From: Chiloscyllium plagiosum
Taxonomy: Eukaryota
Direction: 5' to 3'
Length of the DNA stretch: 64,000 nt
Assembly (NCBI RefSeq): GCF_004010195.1
Contig: NC_057719.1
Span: forward strand, 11,357,822 to 11,421,821
The notes below the pieces were generated by a model. It was not told the DNA's origin, made no database searches, and saw only the letters and a program-made list of their open reading frames with translations. Below, one piece after another: positions 7,400 through 61,170 of the stretch (the first letter of the stretch is position 1; each line of letters begins with the position of its first letter). Made by a program: the position numbers and the translations under genes.

Positions 7400-10300
7400 T
7401 TGACAAGGTAAGGTAACTAGTTTGTTTCCTAATCCTTTTTTAAGTAGTCACTTCGGGAGTTAGAATAGTGGGAATGGAGTTTAGGGCAGTGGAATGTTCC
7501 TCCTGCAGAATGTGGGAAGTAAGGGTCACCACTAGTGTCCCTGCTGACTACATCTGTGGGAAGTGCACCCAACACCAGCTCCTCGAAAACCACGTTAGGG
7601 AACTGGAGCTAGAGTTGGATGAACTTCGGATCATTCGGGAGGCAGAGGTAGTCACTCCCCAGATAAAAGAAAAAGACAGATGAGTGACAGTTAGGGGACA
7701 GAAAGGGAACCGGCAGGCAGTGCAGGGATCTTCTGTGGCCATTCCCCTCAACAATAAGTATACCGTTTTGGATACCGTTGGGGGGGATGACTTACCAGGG
7801 GAAAGCAGTGGGGCTCCTGCTGCTCAGAAGGGAAGGGGGAAGAGGAGCAGAGCAGTAGTTAGGACTCGATAATGGGGACTCGATAGTTAGGGGGATGGAT
7901 AGGAGGTTCTGTGAAGATGAGAGAGACTCATAGTTGGTATGTTGCCTCCCGGGTGCCAGGGTCCGTGATGTCTCTGATCGTGTTTTTGGGATCCTTCGTG
8001 GGGAGGGAGAGCAGCCCCAAGTCGTGGTCCACATTAACACCAACGACATAGATCGGAAGAGAGATGGGGACTTGAGGCAGAAATTCAGGGAGCTAGAATG
8101 GAAGCTTAGAGCTAGGAAAAATAGAGTTGTTTTCTCTGGTTTGCTGCCCGTGCCACGTGCTAGTGAGGTGAGGAATAGGGAGAGAAAGGAGTTGAACACG
8201 TGGCTACAGGGATGGTGCAGGAGGGAGGGTTTCAGGTTTTTGGATAATTGGAGCTCTTTCTGGGGTAGATGGGACGTCTACAAGCTGGATGGTCTTCATC
8301 TAAACCAGAGGGGTACCAATATCCTGAGTGGGAAATTCGCTAAAGTTATTAAGGTGAATTTAAACTAATACAGCAGGGGGATGGGAACCAAAATTGTAGA
8401 ACAAGTACAGAAGAGGATGAGAGTAGAGAGTTCCAAAATCAAGTATTTGACACTGGCAAGCCAGAACCTGGATACTTCAGTGTGTGTACTTCAACGCAAG
8501 GAGCATCCGAAATAAACTGGGTGATTGGCAGCGTGGGTTGGTACCTGGGACTTCGATGTCGTGGCCATTACAGAGACATGGATAGAGCAGGGACAGGAAT
8601 GGCTGTTGCAGGTTCCGGGATTCAGATGTTTCAGTAAGAACAGAGAAGANNCTATCCAAATATTGACTGGGATCACTACAGTACGAGTACTATAGATGGG
8701 TCAGTTTTTGTCCAGTGTGTGTAGGAGGGTTCCTGACACAGTATGTAGACAGGCCTACAAGGGACGAAGACACTTTAGATTTAGTACTGGGTAAGGAGCC
8801 TGGCCAGGTGTTAGATTTGGAAGTAGATGAGCACTTTGGAGACAGCAACCACAATTCTGTCAGGTTTACTTTAGTGATGAAAAGGGATAGGTGTAATCCA
8901 CCGAGCAAGAGTTACAGCTGGGGGAAGGGAAATTACGATGCAATTAGGAAAGATTTAGGAAGCGTAGAATGGGGAAGGAAACTGCAGGGGATGAGCACAT
9001 TAAAAATGTGGAGCTTATTCAAGGAAAAGCTCCTGTATGTCCTAGATAAATATGTACCTGTCAGGCAGGGAGGAAGATATAGAACGTGTGAGCCGTGGTT
9101 TAATAAGAAAGTGGAATCCCTGGTCAAGAAGAAGAAGGCGGCTTATGTTAGGACAAAATGTGAAAACTCAGTTAGGGGCATTGAGGGTTACAAGGAAATG
9201 AGGAAAGACCTAAAACGAGAGCTCAGAAGAGCCAGGAGGAGACATGAGAAGTTGAAGGATCAGGGTTAACCCTAAGACTTTCCATAGGTATGTCAGGAAT
9301 AAAAGAATGACGAGAGTTAAATTAGGGCCAATCAAGGATAATAGTGGGAAATTGTGTGTGGAGTCTGAGGAGATAGGGAAAGCACTAAATAAATATTTTT
9401 CGACAATGTTCACTATAGAAAATGAAAATGTTGGCAAGGAAGATACAGAGATACTTGCATCTAGACTAGAAGAGATTGAGGTTCACAAGGAAGAGGTATT
9501 AGAAATACTGCAGAATGTGAAAATAGACAAGTCCCTTGGGCCAGATGGGATCTATCCTAGGATCCTCTGGGAAGCAAGGGAAGAGATTGCTGAGCCTTTG
9601 GCATTGATCTTCTATATCTTCCTCCCTGCCTGACAGGTACATATTTATCTAGAACATACAGGAGCTTTTCCTTGAATAAGCTCCACATTTTTAATGTGCT
9701 CATCCCCTGCATCATTGTCTACAGCAATAGTGCCTGAGGACTGAAGGATAGCAAATGTGGTTCCCTTGTTCAAAAAGGGTAATAGAGACAACCCTGGTAA
9801 TTACAGACCAGTGAGTCTCACTCCAGCTGTTGGTAAAGTGTTGGAAAAGGTTATAAGAGGTAGGATTTATAACCATCTAGAAAAGAATAATCTGATCAGG
9901 GACAGTCAGCACGGTTTTGTGAAGGGTAGATCGTGCCTAACAAATCTTATTGACTTTTTTGACAAAGATGGTTTACTCTCATCTACCAAACAGGTAGATG
10001 AGAGTAAACCAGTTGATGTGGTGTATATGGATTCCAGCAAGGTGTTCGATAAGGTTCCCCACAGTAGGCTATTATACAAAATGCGGAGGAATGGGATTGT
10101 GGGAGACATAGCAGTTTGGATCAGTAATTGGCTTGCTGAAAGAAAACAGAGGGTTGTAGTTGATAGGAAATGTTCATCTTGGTGTCCAGTTATTAGTGGC
10201 GTACCGCAAGGGTCGGTGTTGGGTCCACTGCTGTTCATCATTTTTATAAATGACCTGGATGAGGGCTTAGAAGGGTGGGTTAGTAAATTTGCAGACGATA

Positions 10301-16951: not shown

Positions 16952-17410
16952 AAAAGAGGGGTCAAGAAAGCACACAAGTAATTTTAAAGATGTTGAGACA
17001 TGAAGATGATGATATTCAGGCATCTCATAGGAACATAGAAGCAAGTGTCAGCCATTCAGCCCTTCAAACCTGTTCCACTATTCCCACTGATAAGAAGCAG
17101 TACTTTGAAAGCTAGTGCCACCAAATAAACCTGTTGGACTATAACCTGGTGTTGTGTGACTTTTAACTTCGACCATCCAATTCAGTACACTATTCCTGCT
17201 TTCTCCCCATATCCTTTGATCCCTTTAGCCTCAAGGACCATACCTAACTTCTTGAAAACATTCAATGTGCTGGGCCCAAACCCTTTCTGTAGCAGATATT
17301 TGAAGTGCCACAACAAGCTGAGCAGTGTGCCACAAAATTATCAGGAAGCAGCAGTTGTTTTATCTGAGACCAGGTGCCTTATCATAGGGACAGGAGAACA
17401 GCACCTGGCA

Positions 17411-17648
17411 CCAAAAGAGAAAATGCTGGAAAATCTCAGCAGGTCTGGCAGCATCTGTAAGGAGAGAAAAGAGCTGACGTTTCGAGTCTAACTGACCCTT
17501 TGTCAAAGCTTTGACAAAGTGTCAGTTAGACTTGAAACATCAGCTCTTTTCACTCCTTACAGATGCTGCCAGACATACTGAGATTTTCCAACATTTTCTC
17601 TTTTGGTTTCAGATTCCAGCATCTGCAGTAATTTGCTTTTAACTTTTT
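17411..17648. mobile_element. PLE-derived zero-spacer palindrome (~198 bp) with a 41-nt extension
   Basis: Mirror centre AAG|CTT at 17508/17509; arms 17410-17508 and 17509-17607. 15-bp TSD gaacagcacctggca at 17396-17410 and 17649-17663. Confidence 0.88.
17472..17510 (-). ncRNA. Minimal hammerhead motif with U3-A8 core variant
   Basis: Minus strand reads agct TTGACAA a gggtc agtta gactc GAAA cgt c agct. The C3-G8 pair is replaced by U3-A8. Confidence 0.7.
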
Positions 17649-17764
17649 GAACAGCACCTGGCATTTAATTGGTGAATAGCACTGTCACTCAGTGCACAGA
17701 GGCAGAGGTGGGGGCTAATTCCCAGCATTTGATTGGTGGGTGGTGCTATCGCTCAATGCATGCA

Positions 17765-19324: not shown

Positions 19325-19555
19325 AATGATTCGGAGATGACGGTGTTGGACTGGGGTGTACAAAGTTAAAAATCACACAACACCAGGTTATAGTCCAACA
19401 GGTTTAATTGGAAGCACTAGCTTTCGGAGCGACGCTCCTTCATCAGGTGGTTGCGAAAGCTAGTGCTTCCAATTAAACCTGTTGGACTATAACCTGGTGT
19501 TGTGTGATTTTTAACTTTGTACACCCCAGTCCAACACCGGCATCTCCAAATCATT
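19325..19555. mobile_element. PLE-derived fold-back element (~102-bp arms) nested in a CR1
   Basis: Arms 19325-19426 and 19454-19555; same family as 25783-26275. The right end abuts an assembly gap. Confidence 0.85.
19415..19449 (-). ncRNA. Minimal type-I hammerhead ribozyme motif (PLE), intact
   Basis: Minus strand reads cac CTGATGA a ggagc gtc gctcc GAAA gct a gtg. Confidence 0.85.
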
Positions 19556-21679: not shown

Positions 21680-21892
21680 TTGTCCGCCCCAATCCAATCA
21701 GTGTTGGATTGGGGTGGACAAAGCCAGAAGTCACAGGACACCAGGTTATAGTCCAACAGGTTTATTTGAAATTACAAGCTTTTGAAGCACTGCCCCTTCA
21801 TCAGGTGAATGTCACCTGACAAAGCTCCAAAAGATTGTAATTTCAAATAAATTTATTGGACTACAGCCTGGTGTTGTGTGACTTCTGACTTT
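21680..21892. mobile_element. Decayed PLE-derived fold-back element
   Basis: Inverted arms at ~21720-21808 and ~21812-21892. The minus-strand hammerhead has GAAA changed to AAAA. Confidence 0.75.
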
Positions 21893-22994: not shown

Positions 22995-23421
22995 GTGTTC
23001 AAAGTTTGTGCGAAGATTTGTAGCTTGGGTGCTCGTTGTTGTGGTTCTGTTCGCCGAGCTGGAAGTTTTTGTTGCAAACGTTTCGTAGCCACACACGCAG
23101 ACAACAAGCAATATGAATTCGACTGGGACAACACTACTATCACAGGGCAGGCCAGACAGAGAACAGCCAGGGAATTCCTAGAGACATGGCATTCATCCAC
23201 AAACTCCATCAACAAACACATCGACCTGGACCCAATATACCAACCACTACAGCGGACAGCTGAAACTGACAACCGGAAGCGGCAGGGACAGACCACTATA
23301 AACACCGGAGGAAACATCAAAGAAGCGCTTCGCAGGAGGCTCCCAAGCACTGATGATGTCGCCTAGCCAGGGGACGAAACGTTTGAAACGAAAACTTCCA
23401 GCTCGGCGAACAGAACCACAA
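22995..23421 (+). mobile_element. PLE 3' fragment (GIY-YIG C-terminus and pLTR) with an inverted pLTR at its left end
   Basis: Encodes HADNKQYEFDWDNTTITGQARQRTAREFLETWHSSTNSINKH. 23039-23086 is inverted relative to 23374-23423. Imperfect TSD caggaagc(t)c(t)taa at 22981-22994 and 23422-23434. Confidence 0.85.
23347..23386 (+). ncRNA. Minimal hammerhead motif downstream of a GIY-YIG coding remnant
   Basis: gca CTGATGA t gtcgcct agcc aggggac GAAA cgt t tga. The inverted sibling arm at ~23070-23086 has tgc, which restores helix I. Confidence 0.75.
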
Positions 23422-25782: not shown

Positions 25783-26275
25783 ATTTGGAGATGCCGGTGT
25801 TGGACTGGGGTGTACAAAGTTAAAAATCACACAACACCAGGTTATAGTCCAACAGGTTTAATTGGAAGCACACTAGCTTCCGGAGCAGCGCTCCTTCATC
25901 AGGTGATTGTGGAGGGCTCGATCGTAACACAGAATTTATAGTAAAAATTTGCAGTGTGATGAAACTGAAATTATACATTGAAAAATTGATTGTCTGTTAA
26001 GCCTTTCGTCTGTTAGAATACAGTGATAGTTCACTGATTTACACATGAAAGAAGTGAACTATCACTGTATTCTAACAGATGAAAGGCTTAACAGACAATC
26101 AATTTTTCAATGTATAATTTCAGTTACATCACACTGCAAATTTTTGCTATAAATTCTGTGTTACGATCGAGCCCTCCACAATCACCTGATGAAGGAGCGC
26201 CGCTCCGAAAGCTAGTGTGCTTCCAATTAAACCTGTTGGACTATAACCTGGTGTTGTGTGATTTTTAACTTTGTA
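25783..26275. mobile_element. PLE-derived fold-back element with 223-bp inverted arms
   Basis: Arms 25813-26035 and 26053-26275, 17-nt spacer, ~30-nt one-sided extension. Direct repeat tgtatctctgaatg at 25769-25782 and 26272-26285. Confidence 0.9.
26183..26217 (+). ncRNA. Minimal type-I hammerhead ribozyme motif (PLE), intact
   Basis: cac CTGATGA a ggagc gcc gctcc GAAA gct a gtg. Helix I cac/gtg, helix II ggagc/gctcc, palindromic helix III AGCT. Confidence 0.85.
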
Positions 26276-28948: not shown

Positions 28949-28950
28949 AC

Positions 28951-31380
28951 AAAAAAAAAACTACAGATGCTGGAATCCAAAGTGGACAGGCAAGAGGCTG
29001 GAAGAACGCAGCAAGCCAGGCAGCATCAGGAGGCGGAGAAGTCGACATTTCGGGTGTAACCCTTCTTCAGCACTGGGGGTGGGTGTAGCGGGAGCTGCAG
29101 ATAAAGGGGGTGGTGGGGACAGGGTGGTGAAGTGTGGATAAGTGAAGACAGGTAGAGGGTATGACCTGGTTGGTCAAAGGGAGGAATGAATCTGGTTGGT
29201 GGCAGGGGGGAAATGGAAAGGAGGGGAAGGGGCTGGAAGGGAGGTTATTTGAACGTGGCGTTACCGTGCTATAGACTGCCCAGGTGGAAGATGAATTGTT
29301 GCTCCTCTAATGAGTGTTTTGGTTCTTTGCTGCAATGGAGGGGCCTGGCTGAAACGATCGGCGAACCATTCCCTGAGTTTATGTTTGGTGTCCCCGATGT
29401 AGAGACGACCACACTGGACACAGTAAACTAGGTTGGATGAGAGGCAGGTGAACCTCTGTCTCACCTAGAAGGACTGCTTGGGGTCCTGGATGGAGGTGAG
29501 GGGGGGTGATGCGCCGACAGGTTTTACATCTTTTCCGGTTGCAGGGGAAGGTATTTTGGGGTTTGGGGGGATTGGTAGGAAGAGTGGTGCAAACCATGGA
29601 CTGTTGAAGGGAACAGTTCTTGCAGAAGGCAGAGAGGGGTGTGGAGGGGAAAATATTGGCATTGGGGTCTAGTTGGAGTTGACAAAAGTGTTTAAGGATG
29701 ATGCATTGGATGTGGAGACTGTTGGGGTGGTAGGTGAGGACAAGGGTATTCTGTCTTTATTGCAGTTGTGAGGGGGTGTGGTTTAGAGCAGTGGAACAGG
29801 AAATGGAAGTGATGCGGCAGAGGGCTGTCTGGATGACAGAGGGATGGAAAGCATGTTGTTCGAAATCTGGGATGCTCGCGAGTGGAATGTCTCCTCAACC
29901 GAGCAAATGTGGCAGAGACAGAGGAATTGTGAGAATGGGATGCCGTTCTTGCAGGATACTGAATGGGAGGAGGTGTAGCCCAGGTAGTTATGGGAGTCTG
30001 GGGTTTGTAATAAACATCCGTCTAAAGACTGTCATCGGGGATGGAAACGGAGAGGTCAAGAAAGGGGAACGAGATGGACCAAGTGAATTTGAGGGCGCAG
30101 TGGAAGTTGTGGGCGAAGTCGATGAATTGCTCCAGTACAGCCTGAGTGCAGGACGCTGCATCGATGCAGTCATCAATGTAACAGCTGAAGAGTTGGAGCA
30201 CAGCGCCTGTATAAGTACTGAAGAGGGACTATTCAACATAGCCGACAAAGAGGCAGTGTAGCTGGGGCCCATCCGGTGCCCATGGTCACCTCCTGCATTT
30301 GAAGGAAATGGGAGGAGTTGAAGGAAATGTTGTTGAGGGTGAGGACCAGTTCGGTGAGGCGAAGGAGGGTATGGCTGGAGGGGTCTGGATGGGTCTGTTG
30401 GAGAGGAAGAAGCTGAGGGCCTGGAGGCCATCCTTGTGGGGTATGGACGTGTATAAGGACTGCATGTCCATAGTGAAGATAAAGCGCTGGCGGCCAGGGA
30501 ACTGAAAGTTGCTGAAGAGATGGAGGGCATGGTTGGTGTTGTGGATGTAGGTGGGAAGTGGTTGAACCAAGGGGGAGAGGATAGAGTCGAGGTAGGAGAT
30601 GGGTTTGGTGGGGCAGGAACATGCTGAGACGTTGGGTTGGTCAGGGTAGTTGGACTTGTGGATCTTGGGGAGCAGGTAGAACTGGGCAATGCAGGGCTGG
30701 GGGACTATGAGTTTGGCGGCAGTGGAGGGGAGATCACCAGAGTCAATGAGGGCACGGACAATGCGAGTGATTTTGGCATAATGGGTCGTGGGCAAGGGGG
30801 AGGTTGGATGTGGTGTCGGAGGGTTAGTGTTTGGTCTCTGTGACATAGAGGCCCGTTGTCCAGACTATCACCGCCCGCCTTTGTCAGCAGGTTTGATGGT
30901 GAACCGAGGGTTAGTGCGGAGAGAGTGCAGCGTTGCACATTTGGAAGGGGTGAGGTTGAAGTGGGTGAGAGGGGTGGAGAAATTGAGGCGCCAATGCCAT
31001 GTCAGAAATCTGCAATGAAGAGGTCTAGGTGGGTACAATGTCAGCGGGGGATGACCAAGTGGAGAAGCAAGGTTGGAGCCAGGAGGAGGGGTCCTCAGAG
31101 GGAGGTTGAGAGTTTTTGTCAAAGAAGAAGGCACGGAAGCGGAAGCGGCAGAAGAAGAGCTCCATGTCATGGTGGGTCCAGAATTCATTGAGGTGGGGGG
31201 GCAGAGTGGTATGAACATGAGCCCTTTCCTGAGGACAGGCCGTTCAGCTTCAAAGAGTTTGAGATAATGTAGGATAGTAAATACATGGCAAGGCTCAGGG
31301 TTGGGGTTTTGGGGTGGGGGGTCCCGAGGTGGCTGATGGAGGGGATGGTGGTAGGGTGAAGTGGGTGAGGAAAATCCTCT
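28951..31380 (-). mobile_element. Penelope-like retroelement (probably Neptune-type), near full-length and frameshifted: RT, Cys-rich linker, GIY-YIG endonuclease, pLTR
   Basis: Minus-strand fragments include IKPADKGG, FYLLPKIHK and FTMDMQSLYTSIPH (PLE RT), PCNRKRCKTC (linker) and FTCLSSNLVYCVQCGRLYIGDTKHKLREWF (GIY-YIG). A hammerhead-bearing terminus follows. Confidence 0.88.
29040..29074 (-). ncRNA. Hammerhead motif in the pLTR of the long PLE copy, decayed
   Basis: Minus strand reads agtg CTGAAGA a gggt tac accc GAAA tgt c gact. Confidence 0.65.
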
Positions 31381-31710
31381 GCAACAACAGCCCGTAATGT
31401 TGTTCATAATCAAAACCACCATTCCCCTTCCTCTCTCTCCTCCCTTTCCATTCTTCCCATAACATCCATACCCCAAAACATTAATCTGTCAGTTCTGTTC
31501 TCCCCCCGCAAACATTTTTTCTGTAATAGTTATGATATCCCAATTCCATGTTGCCATCCATGCCGAGTTCATTTGCCAACCTGTCAGTCCTCTTGCAATT
31601 AAACAAATGCAATTTAATTCATCAGTCTTACTTTGTTTTCTACCATGTTGTTGCCCATCTTACACAAAAACATAGAAGATAGGAGCAGGAGGAGGCCATT
31701 CAGCCCTTCC

Positions 31711-45700: not shown

Positions 45701-48700
45701 TTTTGTTTGGCAAAAGTGCATGACTGAACATTAGCAATAATTTCAGGCTCTTCAGTTTCTCCTGCAACCACACAAACCCAGTAATAAAAAACATACACAG
45801 ACAGACGAAGGACAACTTCTAACTGAGAAAACTGACTTTCCGTATTTTAATTCCTAACTCAATTTAAGCCTGGCTTCTCAGACCCTTTGTTCGTTTCACT
45901 GCCTCTCTGTCTCACCTTGCCCTGTCCACAAAAACAAGAAGTCTGCTAAGAATGCCCAATAGAACATTCAGGACCAGAGACTTACAGACATAATGGGCTT
46001 GGTCTTTATCGATTAGCAAGACAAGCTAATGGATTACTTGTCTGCAGACTTTCCAGAAAACAAGCTCAGTACTGGTGTGAGATGCTTTGTTTTAAACGCC
46101 CAGTATTAAGAAAGATTATTTTTCCAAATTCTGTGGGAAAAGGCTCTTAAAAAGAATGACAAAAGCTAAAAGAGGGAGAGTGCATAAAGTTCAATATACC
46201 CTCATCGCCATTTGACAGGAAAACATGAAACATACTCTTGGAATAAGGAGGGAAGTAATACTGTGGTAGTTCTCTCTCGTCAGACTGCATTTCCCTGAGG
46301 ATCCAGGACAGTCCTGCAAAATTTCACAAATCTATGCCCATGTTTTAACATTTTCTTCGATTCTCTTGAATCAATCAGGTTTTAAAAACAGTGGAAACCA
46401 AACTCTCAATAGTGTTCTCAACAAATATGATGTTATTTATTTTATCCTCCTCAACCCCTCATAACTGAAGCCTTTCACAATATGTCATCCCTAACACCAC
46501 CTCATCTGTTTTCCAATTCAGATGTTTCCATCCTTTACCTATACAATAGTAGCCAAAAGAAGTCTAGCAATGGTTTATCTTCCTACCCCTCTGCTATTAC
46601 CTCTGGAGTTCCCACATATCCATCCTTGCAACCTCATTCCCATCATCTTCTTCAGGTGCCCTCTTGGTAAAATCATCCACAACCATGGGGTCAGCATGTA
46701 TACGGCTGCCACACAAGCGGTACTTCTCCACTTTCTCTCACAATTCTTCTGCAATCTCACAACTTGGAAATACTTCTGCAGCCATGGATGTGGACTTTGA
46801 TCCAGCTGCAAGTACAAGAAACAGCAAGTTGCTTCTCTAAGTGGTGTGCACCTTGAAAGATACATGCTGCCCTGGTCCTTCTCAGTAGTAGAGGTCACAA
46901 GCTTGGAAGATGCATTCTAAGAACCCTTGGGGAGTTCTTGCAATGCATCTTGCAGATGATTTTACACTTTGCTGCCACAAAGCATCAGCAGCAGCGGATG
47001 AGGTGTCAATCAAGCAAGCAAATGGTGGACAAGCTTTCAGGAGTCAGGAATTGAGTTTTTCACCACATAATTCCTAGCCTCTGACTTGCTCTTGAAGCCA
47101 TAGCATTTATATGGTTGATTAAATTGTTTCTGGTCAATGATAAGCTCAGTATGTTGATAATGAGCAATTCAGTGATGGCAACGCCTTTGACATTCAAGGA
47201 ATGATCGTCAGAATGTCTCTTGTCGGAAGTGAGCATTGTCTGGTATTTCTGTAGCGTGAACATTACTTGCCAATTCTCAGTTCAAACCTGGACATTGCCA
47301 GTGTCTTGCTGCTTTCAGATATGGGCTGCATCAGTATTGAAGACTGAGAGAAGATCTGATAGAGGCTTTCAAAATCATGACCAGACTGGATAGAGTTGAT
47401 AGAGAGAAGCTGTCCCCACTCTTAAAAGAAGAAAAAGCATGATATGACAAAGATCTAAAATAATGTGCAAACAAAGCAACAGCAAAGTGAAAAATACTTT
47501 TTTCACACCAAGTTGTTAGGGTATGGAATGTACTATCTGGACAAAATGGAGGCAGGTTCAACTAAGGCATTTAAGAGGGCACTGGATGAGTATTTGGATA
47601 GAAATAATGTTCAGGGAAATGGGGGAAATGGCAAGAGAACGGCACTGGGTAAGAGAACCACTTTTTGTTTTAATTCATTCAAGGGACATAGAAATCACTA
47701 GCCAGCCAGTATTTATTTCCCATCCCTAAGAGTCCCAAAGAGTCAACCACACTGCCGTGGATCTGGAGTCTCATGTTGGTCAAACCAGGAAAGGGTGGCA
47801 GATTTCCTTCCCTAAAAGGACACTAGTGTACCAGTTATTTCCGACAACTGACAATGGTTTTATGGTCATCCCAGATTTTTTTTTATTGAATTCAAATTTC
47901 ACCACCTGCAGAATTTCAACCAGGGTCCCCAGAACATTACCTACATCGCTGGATTTATGGTCTAGTGATAATATCACTAGGCCATTGCCTCTCCATCTTC
48001 TCTGATGAAGAGTCCCTGGACTCAAAATGTTAGCTCTGCTTTCTTCCCACAGGCGCTGCCAGAAGTGCTGAGTTTCTCTAACAATTTGTTCTTGGCTCAG
48101 GTTAAAGACTTCATCCCAGGGCTGTCATATCCAGCAATACAATACGGCAGTGGAGTATTATCACACACAAAGCATAAGAGGAGGTTGACATTTGAATAGA
48201 AGCAATAGCCAGAGGAATACGTATTACTGAGCCAAACTGGCACAAGAGTCTTTCCCTTTGAAATCTGGTTTGCCTTGGTCGATAAAAGACAGCTTTAGGA
48301 ATTTATAAATATCTGTAAAAACCACCTGCTGAAGTAGTAAATCAAGGTTAGTTTATTGCCAATTTTCACCCATTCCCTCTCTTAACTCTAAGGAGGGAAA
48401 ATGTTTTCATGGATGGTACTCAGATCCTAGTGTGTTCTTCAGAAGTGCTTTGCAGACACTTCACACTCTTAAGTATTGTTTTGCAAATGAAGGTGCCAGT
48501 CCTGAAATTTAGAAGGGGCCAGCAACACCCTCCCACCGCCAATCCCGTGCTCTGATTGTAAACTTTACATGAAAGCGTGCAGTCAAATTCATATCTAGTG
48601 GAGGACATCACAGCCTCCTGGTTCAATCCTGCTCCTACCCGGTACCCACCAGATAATCAGGAAGATGACCTCAGTGGAAATTGGGAATGGTGGTGGCCAG

Positions 48701-60957: not shown

Positions 60958-61170
60958 GGGAGAAAGTGAGGTCTGCAGATGCTGGAGATCAAAGTTGAAA
61001 CTTTATTGCTGGAACAGCACAGCAGGTCAGGCAGCATCCAGGGAACAGGAGATTCGACGTTTCGGGCACAGGCCCTTCTTCAGGAACGGCCTGTGCCCGA
61101 AACGTCGAATCTCCTGTTCCCTGGATGCTGCCTGACCTGCTGTGCTGTTCCAGCAATAAAGTTTCAACTT
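60958..61170. mobile_element. Young PLE-derived fold-back element in SNW1 intron 2
   Basis: Perfect 83-bp arms at 60992-61074 and 61088-61170, plus a 34-nt extension. 15-bp direct repeat cttatttataattag at 60943-60957 and 61168-61182. Confidence 0.92.
61052..61087 (-). ncRNA. Minimal type-I hammerhead ribozyme motif (PLE), intact
   Basis: Minus strand reads gttc CTGAAGA a gggc ctgt gccc GAAA cgt c gaat. Helix III palindrome ACGT, GUC cleavage triplet. Confidence 0.85.

Follow-up and report, generated by a model that had tools for sequence, protein, structure and literature searches.

A minimal hammerhead motif with a U3-A8 core pair in a head-to-head insertion of Penelope-like element ends

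The closest described counterparts of the motif considered here are the minimal hammerheads of Penelope-like elements (PLEs), above all the Cercyon hammerheads of Schistosoma mansoni. In passages of Cervera and De la Pena (2014, PMC4209133), these appear as type I minimal motifs without stem III, with an extra base after position 9, a G10.1-C11.1 pair, palindromic positions 15.2/16.2, a short helix I, a U3-A8 core and many solo copies; about 1,300 U3-A8 matches are counted among S. mansoni PLE hammerheads, and pairs of motifs on opposite strands are mentioned. The supplement of that paper includes two U3-A8 rows and one U3-G8 row, and the 11 vertebrate rows of its Figure S3 are all C3-G8, none of them from a cartilaginous fish. 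Motifs of this minimal type require a same-strand partner for helix III, according to parts of PMC4209133 and PMC6765202. Beyond PLEs, the 3-8 pair covaries to U3-A8 in nature, and such hammerheads are reported active in vitro in a passage of Perreault et al. (2011, PMC3088659); single mutants at 3 or 8 are dead and the double mutant is partly rescued in experiments described in PMC11167929. Because of this covariation and these mutants, the 3-8 pair is regarded as part of the active fold. The U3-A8 swap is already published for other organisms, PLE minimal hammerheads included, and as a variant it is not new; the statement in an earlier note on this DNA that such swaps occur naturally is borne out by the passages of PMC3088659 and PMC4209133.

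PLE insertions likewise have a described anatomy. Inverted, 5′-truncated copies with palindromic junctions are documented in parts of PMC8557442 and PMC3846280, a tail of 30-40 bp is found at one end only (passages of PMC8557442 and PMC11167929), and the origin of this tail is traced in PMC11167929 to two reverse-transcription start sites. Animal non-LTR retrozymes, as presented in part of bioRxiv 10.64898/2026.07.22.740005, are non-autonomous, PLE-derived hammerhead units arranged in head-to-tail tandem arrays, in which dimers in cis are possible; they occur in a chondrichthyan genome too.

Anatomy of the insertion

The locus lies within a 64,000-nt stretch of DNA, the whole of which was analysed and is called the window. 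A 198-bp palindrome at 17410-17607, mismatched in 7 of its 99 mirrored pairs and centred at 17508/17509, the midpoint of AGCT, makes up most of a 238-bp insertion flanked by an exact 15-bp repeat, for which the chance expectation in the search space is 2e-5. The parts are these:

17396..17410, plus strand: left target-site duplication, 15 bp, exact copy of 17649-17663
17411..17648: whole insertion, 238 bp, two PLE end modules head to head
17411..17510, minus strand: left arm, PLE end module without tail, carrying the intact hammerhead motif
17507..17648, plus strand: right arm, PLE end module with tail, carrying the damaged hammerhead motif
17608..17648, plus strand: 41-nt one-sided extension, PLE tail and a few T-rich junction bases
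17649..17663, plus strand: right target-site duplication, 15 bp

The insert terminates on either side in a 3′ end of the element, and the 41-nt extension, junction bases included, is found on the right arm only. The head-to-head, inverted, 5′-truncated layout of an endonuclease-positive PLE insertion unit is present. Because a 15-bp duplication together with a one-sided 41-nt tail corresponds to the published PLE signature, the unit is assigned to the PLEs, and by its sequence the insertion is a head-to-head double copy of a PLE end piece. It resembles the inverted, 5′-truncated pLTR insertions of endonuclease-positive PLEs (passages of PMC3846280, PMC8557442 and PMC11167929) in its head-to-head ends, its palindromic and overlapping junction, its target duplication and its tail at one end. 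Unlike them, it has no ORF between the ends, and its two end modules of ~100 and ~140 nt overlap by 4 nt of helix I; the target duplication measures 15 bp, compared with 8-10 bp in the rotifer PLE examples given in those passages. The insertion shares its non-autonomous, PLE-derived character with the retrozymes, whereas the head-to-tail tandem units that define the latter are absent at the focal locus: only two copies are present, on opposite strands, and a dimer in cis is impossible.

Since the palindrome is one insertion with one target duplication, its arms are not independent evidence, and a reading of the two arms as double evidence was rejected in favour of a single observation. The arms differ at 17520, 17533, 17539, 17552, 17575, 17577 and 17591. 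All seven differences appear to be confined to the right, tailed arm, the left arm resembling the subfamily majority, because the public runs described below hold no majority alternative at the matching left-arm positions. This lopsidedness has a two-sided p of 0.016, or 0.03 if two neighbours are counted as one, in a post hoc test on one locus, and would fit two different templates.

As for the junction, the earlier note had pointed both to the position of AGCT at the exact centre of the palindrome and to its self-complementarity; the position is confirmed, but the second point loses its surprise, as the centre of any perfect palindrome is self-complementary. More telling is where other copies end. 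Among nine listed run pieces that continue into unlike sequence near the centre, five stop at 17510, and AGCT is therefore family sequence. The informative point is that these four family bases can be assigned to either arm, an overlap that a random junction would give about once in 16; a centre at AGCT also agrees with the palindromic junction described for inverted PLE ends in part of PMC3846280. Opposite-strand joints from 17446, 17451 and 17453 to 17508-17514 occur in runs X1, X8 and X16 and point to other inverted copies with one arm also starting at the AGCT edge. The palindrome centre, at 17498-17519, is also a tandem pair of 11-mers that differ at one base. One contig from a second organism aligns, at 3 differences, to the flank plus 23 nt of the insert, a span below the 31-letter rule for a shared insertion, and suggests that the insertion is common to both organisms.

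The window contains further elements of the same general kind:

19325-19555, 21720-21892, 25813-26275 and 60992-61170: other fold-back inserts, of two other families
28950-31500, minus strand: decayed, frameshifted Penelope-like element with reverse transcriptase (RT) fragments and a C3-G8 minimal hammerhead at its end, 29070

Five hammerhead-bearing fold-backs are thus counted, and in four of them the centre is no more than 6 nt from a hammerhead position 3; besides the focal one, three are centred at the hammerhead and one is centred 142 nt upstream. Duplications of 14-15 bp with one-sided extensions mark three of the five, the focal one (41 nt) and two of the others (30 and 34 nt), and a perfect palindromic junction is found in the focal fold-back only. 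The decayed element was identified by homolog search. At E up to 1e-10 its RT fragment finds 46 relatives; PF00078 is present in many of them and GIY-YIG (PF01541) in some, and the three best come from cartilaginous fishes. Pfam returned no matches for seven ORF fragments of this element, a PDB search gave nothing meaningful, and the Atlas only unnamed or DUF8422 clusters. The focal module and the hammerhead module at this element's 3′ end are homologues (~71% over 68 nt). The full element present in the window carries C3-G8, and U3-A8 was seen in no autonomous element.

Several neighbours may be recorded in passing. At 23350 (plus) and 42601 (minus), two inverted 262-nt copies 19 kb apart represent another hammerhead family, one whose helix II is longer. 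The closest C3-G8 sisters of the focal subfamily, both decayed, lie at 48002 (plus) and 53376 (minus), and their helix II strands resemble its own. A LINE-like RT region at 8983-9711 has 102-nt inverted repeats, 99% complementary and 525 nt apart. Runs of N, which are assembly gaps, extend over ~10.3-11.2 kb, 19.56-20.17 kb and 33.8-34.5 kb, one of them starting right after the 19325-19555 fold-back.

The motif and its subfamily

On the minus strand of the left arm, the hammerhead is laid out as follows; the mirror copy is listed last:

17507..17510: helix I 5′ strand AGCT, common to both motifs, the 4-nt arm overlap and mirror centre
17500..17506, minus strand: core U3 U4 G5 A6 C7 A8 A9, TTGACAA
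17498-17494 paired with 17488-17484, minus strand: helix II, 5 pairs including one G-U, with a 5-nt loop
17483-17480, minus strand: GAAA (G12-A13-A14-A15.1)
17479-17476, minus strand: CGU-C; ACGU is self-complementary and would form helix III only as a dimer, then C17
between 17476 and 17475, minus strand: predicted cut site, in the layout of PMC4209133
17472..17475, minus strand: helix I 3′ strand AGCT
17511..17545, plus strand: mirror hammerhead copy, same core at 17511-17517, helix II and ACGU damaged

Within the minus core, U3 is 17506, C7 is 17502 and A8 is 17501; an extra A at 17499 precedes helix II, whose first pair, G17498-C17484, supplies the G10.1-C11.1 of the minimal type I layout. 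With four pairs in helix I, no stem III, a palindromic ACGU and an NUH cut site, the minus arm is a complete minimal type I layout. The plus arm has a U-U mismatch in helix II, C11.1 changed to U, and CAU in place of CGU. These readings agree with the earlier note, which had described a UUGACAA core in both arms, with the helices and GAAA-CGU-C intact on the minus strand, and had warned that a strict CUGANGA search would miss it: the core conforms to the published U3-A8 covariant, not to strict CUGANGA. A minimal-hammerhead descriptor found one U3-A8 and five C3-G8 matches in the window and none of either in 60 Markov resamples.

The motif shares with the Cercyon hammerheads every trait listed above from the passages of PMC4209133, the occurrence of two motifs on opposite strands included. 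It differs in its host, which its best protein relatives suggest to be cartilaginous-fish-like, akin to a shark or ray, in the C7 of its core, and in abundance, with ~10^4 copy equivalents against ~1,300 matches. The covariation of the 3-8 pair is the same as in the natural U3-A8 hammerheads of the PMC3088659 passage; that passage does not deal with motifs of the minimal dimer type, for which such activity is putative.

Whether the swap belongs to one copy or to a family is answered by public sequencing runs, four of which out of 24 (X1, X8, X16 and X21) were aligned to 17300-17535 at 82% likeness and with a 4% share cut-off. X1, X8 and X16 are contig sets from three organisms and X21 consists of raw RNA reads; X15 and X17-X20, with small shares, were excluded. 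Depth over the core relative to the flank is ~20,000x in X1 and ~29,000x in X8, figures that hold to an order of magnitude only and give no copy number; on this scale related copies would number roughly 10^4. The tallies of changes are accounted for completely in X1 (12 of 12) and X16 (18 of 18), with no C3 at 17506, no G8 at 17501 and no C7 decay at 17502 at a share of at least 4%. In X8, 16 of 17 changes are placed, G8 is excluded and one A>G is left unplaced. X21 has 11 unplaced changes, 3 A>G and 1 T>C among them, so that a minority of its reads may carry C3 or G8. At the motif's two real CpGs the variation is 7-19% in X1 and 11-41% in X8, while C7 shows none of this, and A8 was therefore already present in the master.

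Depth over the core relative to the helix II bin is 0.90 in the X21 raw reads and 0.62-0.74 in the contigs, compared with 0.73-0.86 for the preceding step, and two of the nine listed pieces that continue into unlike sequence stop at 17504-17505. Such pieces may be C3 or truncated copies, and local alignment clipping could hide C3 or C3-G8 copies at the edge of a match. Exact-pattern scans of genome, viral and metagenome contigs gave no match in any of six scans.

Judged by the run tallies, most copies of a very abundant subfamily carry TTGACAA in the runs of three organisms, and the core is not private decay. The earlier note had proposed a family consensus as a check and had named a private change, copied into both arms, as the contrary case. 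Decay in one source copy, doubled into the arms by fold-back, would agree with the situation inside the window, where all nine sister motifs are C3-G8 and U3-A8 occurs in the focal insertion only. Depth of thousands-fold across the core, lacking G8 at 4% in the contig sets of all three organisms, largely refutes it, and it is now a very improbable explanation.

The 3-8 pair: selection and its alternatives

For the comparison with sister motifs, an alignment of 13 rows (A1) was reduced to 10 (A2) by removing two second-family rows that were out of register and the non-independent plus arm, and pairs were counted on A2. None of the 10 window motifs is mismatched at 3/8: the nine sisters are C3-G8, and the focal motif is U3-A8. 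Changes on both sides are found in 6 of 11 pairs, among them three of the four pairs of helix I. Paired cells amount to 89%, versus 17-41% in slid controls; the shuffle control is inflated by relatedness. In a simple neutral model, with or without CpG bias, two core changes would produce a Watson-Crick swap at 3/8 with a chance of 0.04-0.9%. Because U3-A8 is the subfamily majority, all nine sisters are C3-G8 and this neutral chance is below 1%, it is likely that the active fold was under selection in the source element. The earlier note had gone further and argued for selection on catalysis; selection on the fold is what the majority state, the covariation and the low neutral chance make likely, while cleavage itself stays predicted.

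The favoured reading, held with good though not full confidence, is thus that two end modules of a PLE subfamily went in head to head as one target-duplicated insertion; U3-A8 is the normal core of this subfamily, probably kept by selection on the 3-8 pair, and the present copy is predicted to be inert. The swap likely proceeded in steps. C7, found in none of the nine sisters, makes C7-G8 a CpG, which would favour G8 to A; a subsequent C3 to U would restore the pair. A U3-G8 intermediate would be the alternative.

The same CpG can be turned against selection. On a neutral account, cleavage had already been lost in the master, CpG decay gave A8, an ordinary transition gave U3, and retrotransposition amplified a match that arose by coincidence. 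Such a dead-ribozyme master could still spread: mutating the hammerhead of an anole PLE left insertion in vitro unimpaired in experiments described in PMC11167929, Naiad PLEs thrive without canonical hammerheads according to part of PMC8557442, and both focal arms were copied from uncut RNA. What makes this account unlikely is, besides the small chance of such a pair of changes, the intactness of the other conserved core positions, of helix I (4 pairs) and of helix II (5 pairs) in the majority form, and the recurrence of the same swap in unrelated natural hammerheads.

A second way to obtain both changes without selection on catalysis is suggested by the core itself. An 11-nt near-perfect inverted repeat with 5-bp arms, centred on A6 at 17498..17508 on the minus strand, exists only with U3, C7 and A8 together, and template switching could have made all three. 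The arm length around position 6 is 5 in both focal arms and 0 in all six C3-G8 sisters tested, and a passage of PMC3846280 describes PLEs as prone to fold-back events. Two of the five repeat pairs, however, follow automatically from any U3-A8 swap, and published U3-A8 cores with U7 or A7 have no such repeat. By sequence reasoning, moreover, one full templating event would not yield just these changes: copying from left to right would also alter A9, and copying from right to left U4. Templating of the core is accordingly rated quite improbable. Priming of the insertion's fold-back from this repeat is a separate proposal, and it was rejected here, as the centre would then be 17503 and not 17508.5.

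Folding, joining and meaning for the family

In isolation the minus motif has a pair probability of 0.99 for helix II and 0.4-0.9 for helix I. Within the 74-nt span, which folds at -49.6 kcal/mol (z -12), as in the whole insert or with flanks, these values drop to 0.0, in the whole insert on either strand; the 99-bp hairpin is predicted to bury both motifs. The active-like dimer, at -15.1 kcal/mol versus -21.6 for the best dimer fold, is the less stable form, as it also is in all sisters tested. Because the motif is hairpin-buried and needs a same-strand partner, and because its mirror copy is damaged and on the opposite strand, the focal copy is predicted to be inert. In one poly(A) single-cell run, a library type poorly suited to such a test, RNA ends did not accumulate at the cut site.

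The stability of the hairpin raises the idea that the palindrome is itself a locus-specific functional RNA, microRNA-like or a ribozyme-releasing switch, and the apparent presence of the insertion in a second organism would agree with it. Rfam returned no match at gathering score, and among 17 matches at E up to 10 there was no hammerhead family and only sub-threshold, generic hairpin (miRNA) matches; these were rejected, since they reflect generic hairpin scores far below gathering and differ in sequence. Seven uncompensated arm mismatches, a unique flank devoid of RNA depth in X16 and in the 2% of X21 that was read, and four other fold-backs of the same kind within 64 kb all weigh against such an RNA, which deserves next to no credence.

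On the favoured reading of a double PLE insertion, the motif would work in the source element only as a dimer, with helix III formed by ACGU:ACGU from two units and cutting after GUC. Both arms run across the cut site, and were therefore copied from uncut or re-joined RNA. In the likely course of insertion, uncut RNA was reverse-transcribed by target priming from both start sites of the element, and the two copies would have been joined via the self-complementary AGCT at the motif front. At its simplest, the junction would reflect microhomology joining of two cDNA ends, each halted where helix I begins; the alternative, proposed in part of PMC3846280, is self-priming on an antisense template.

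A more specific version of these events would make the insertion a fossil of twin reverse transcription, in which two different uncut RNAs, held in the hammerhead dimer fold, were copied from both target nicks, stopped at the helix I front and joined through AGCT. It would account for the hammerhead-centred fold-backs (4 of 5), the one-arm tail and the one-arm differences (7 of 7), but is considered rather unlikely. If true, the 3-8 pair would owe its retention as much to a role in a folded clamp or stop signal as to cutting.

The anatomy of the junction bears on how PLEs form head-to-head inserts, a question that one locus cannot settle. The locus shows that PLE ribozymes are undercounted when a search demands strict CUGANGA. 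It also enlarges the set of described U3-A8 hammerheads by an abundant subfamily from a cartilaginous-fish-like vertebrate, an addition of modest weight; no published report of this subfamily was found, and given the incomplete literature coverage of PLE hammerheads no claim to a first among vertebrates is made. Together with its natural C3-G8 sisters in the same genome, the U3-A8 subfamily offers a convenient test pair for asking whether minimal PLE hammerheads are kept for cutting.
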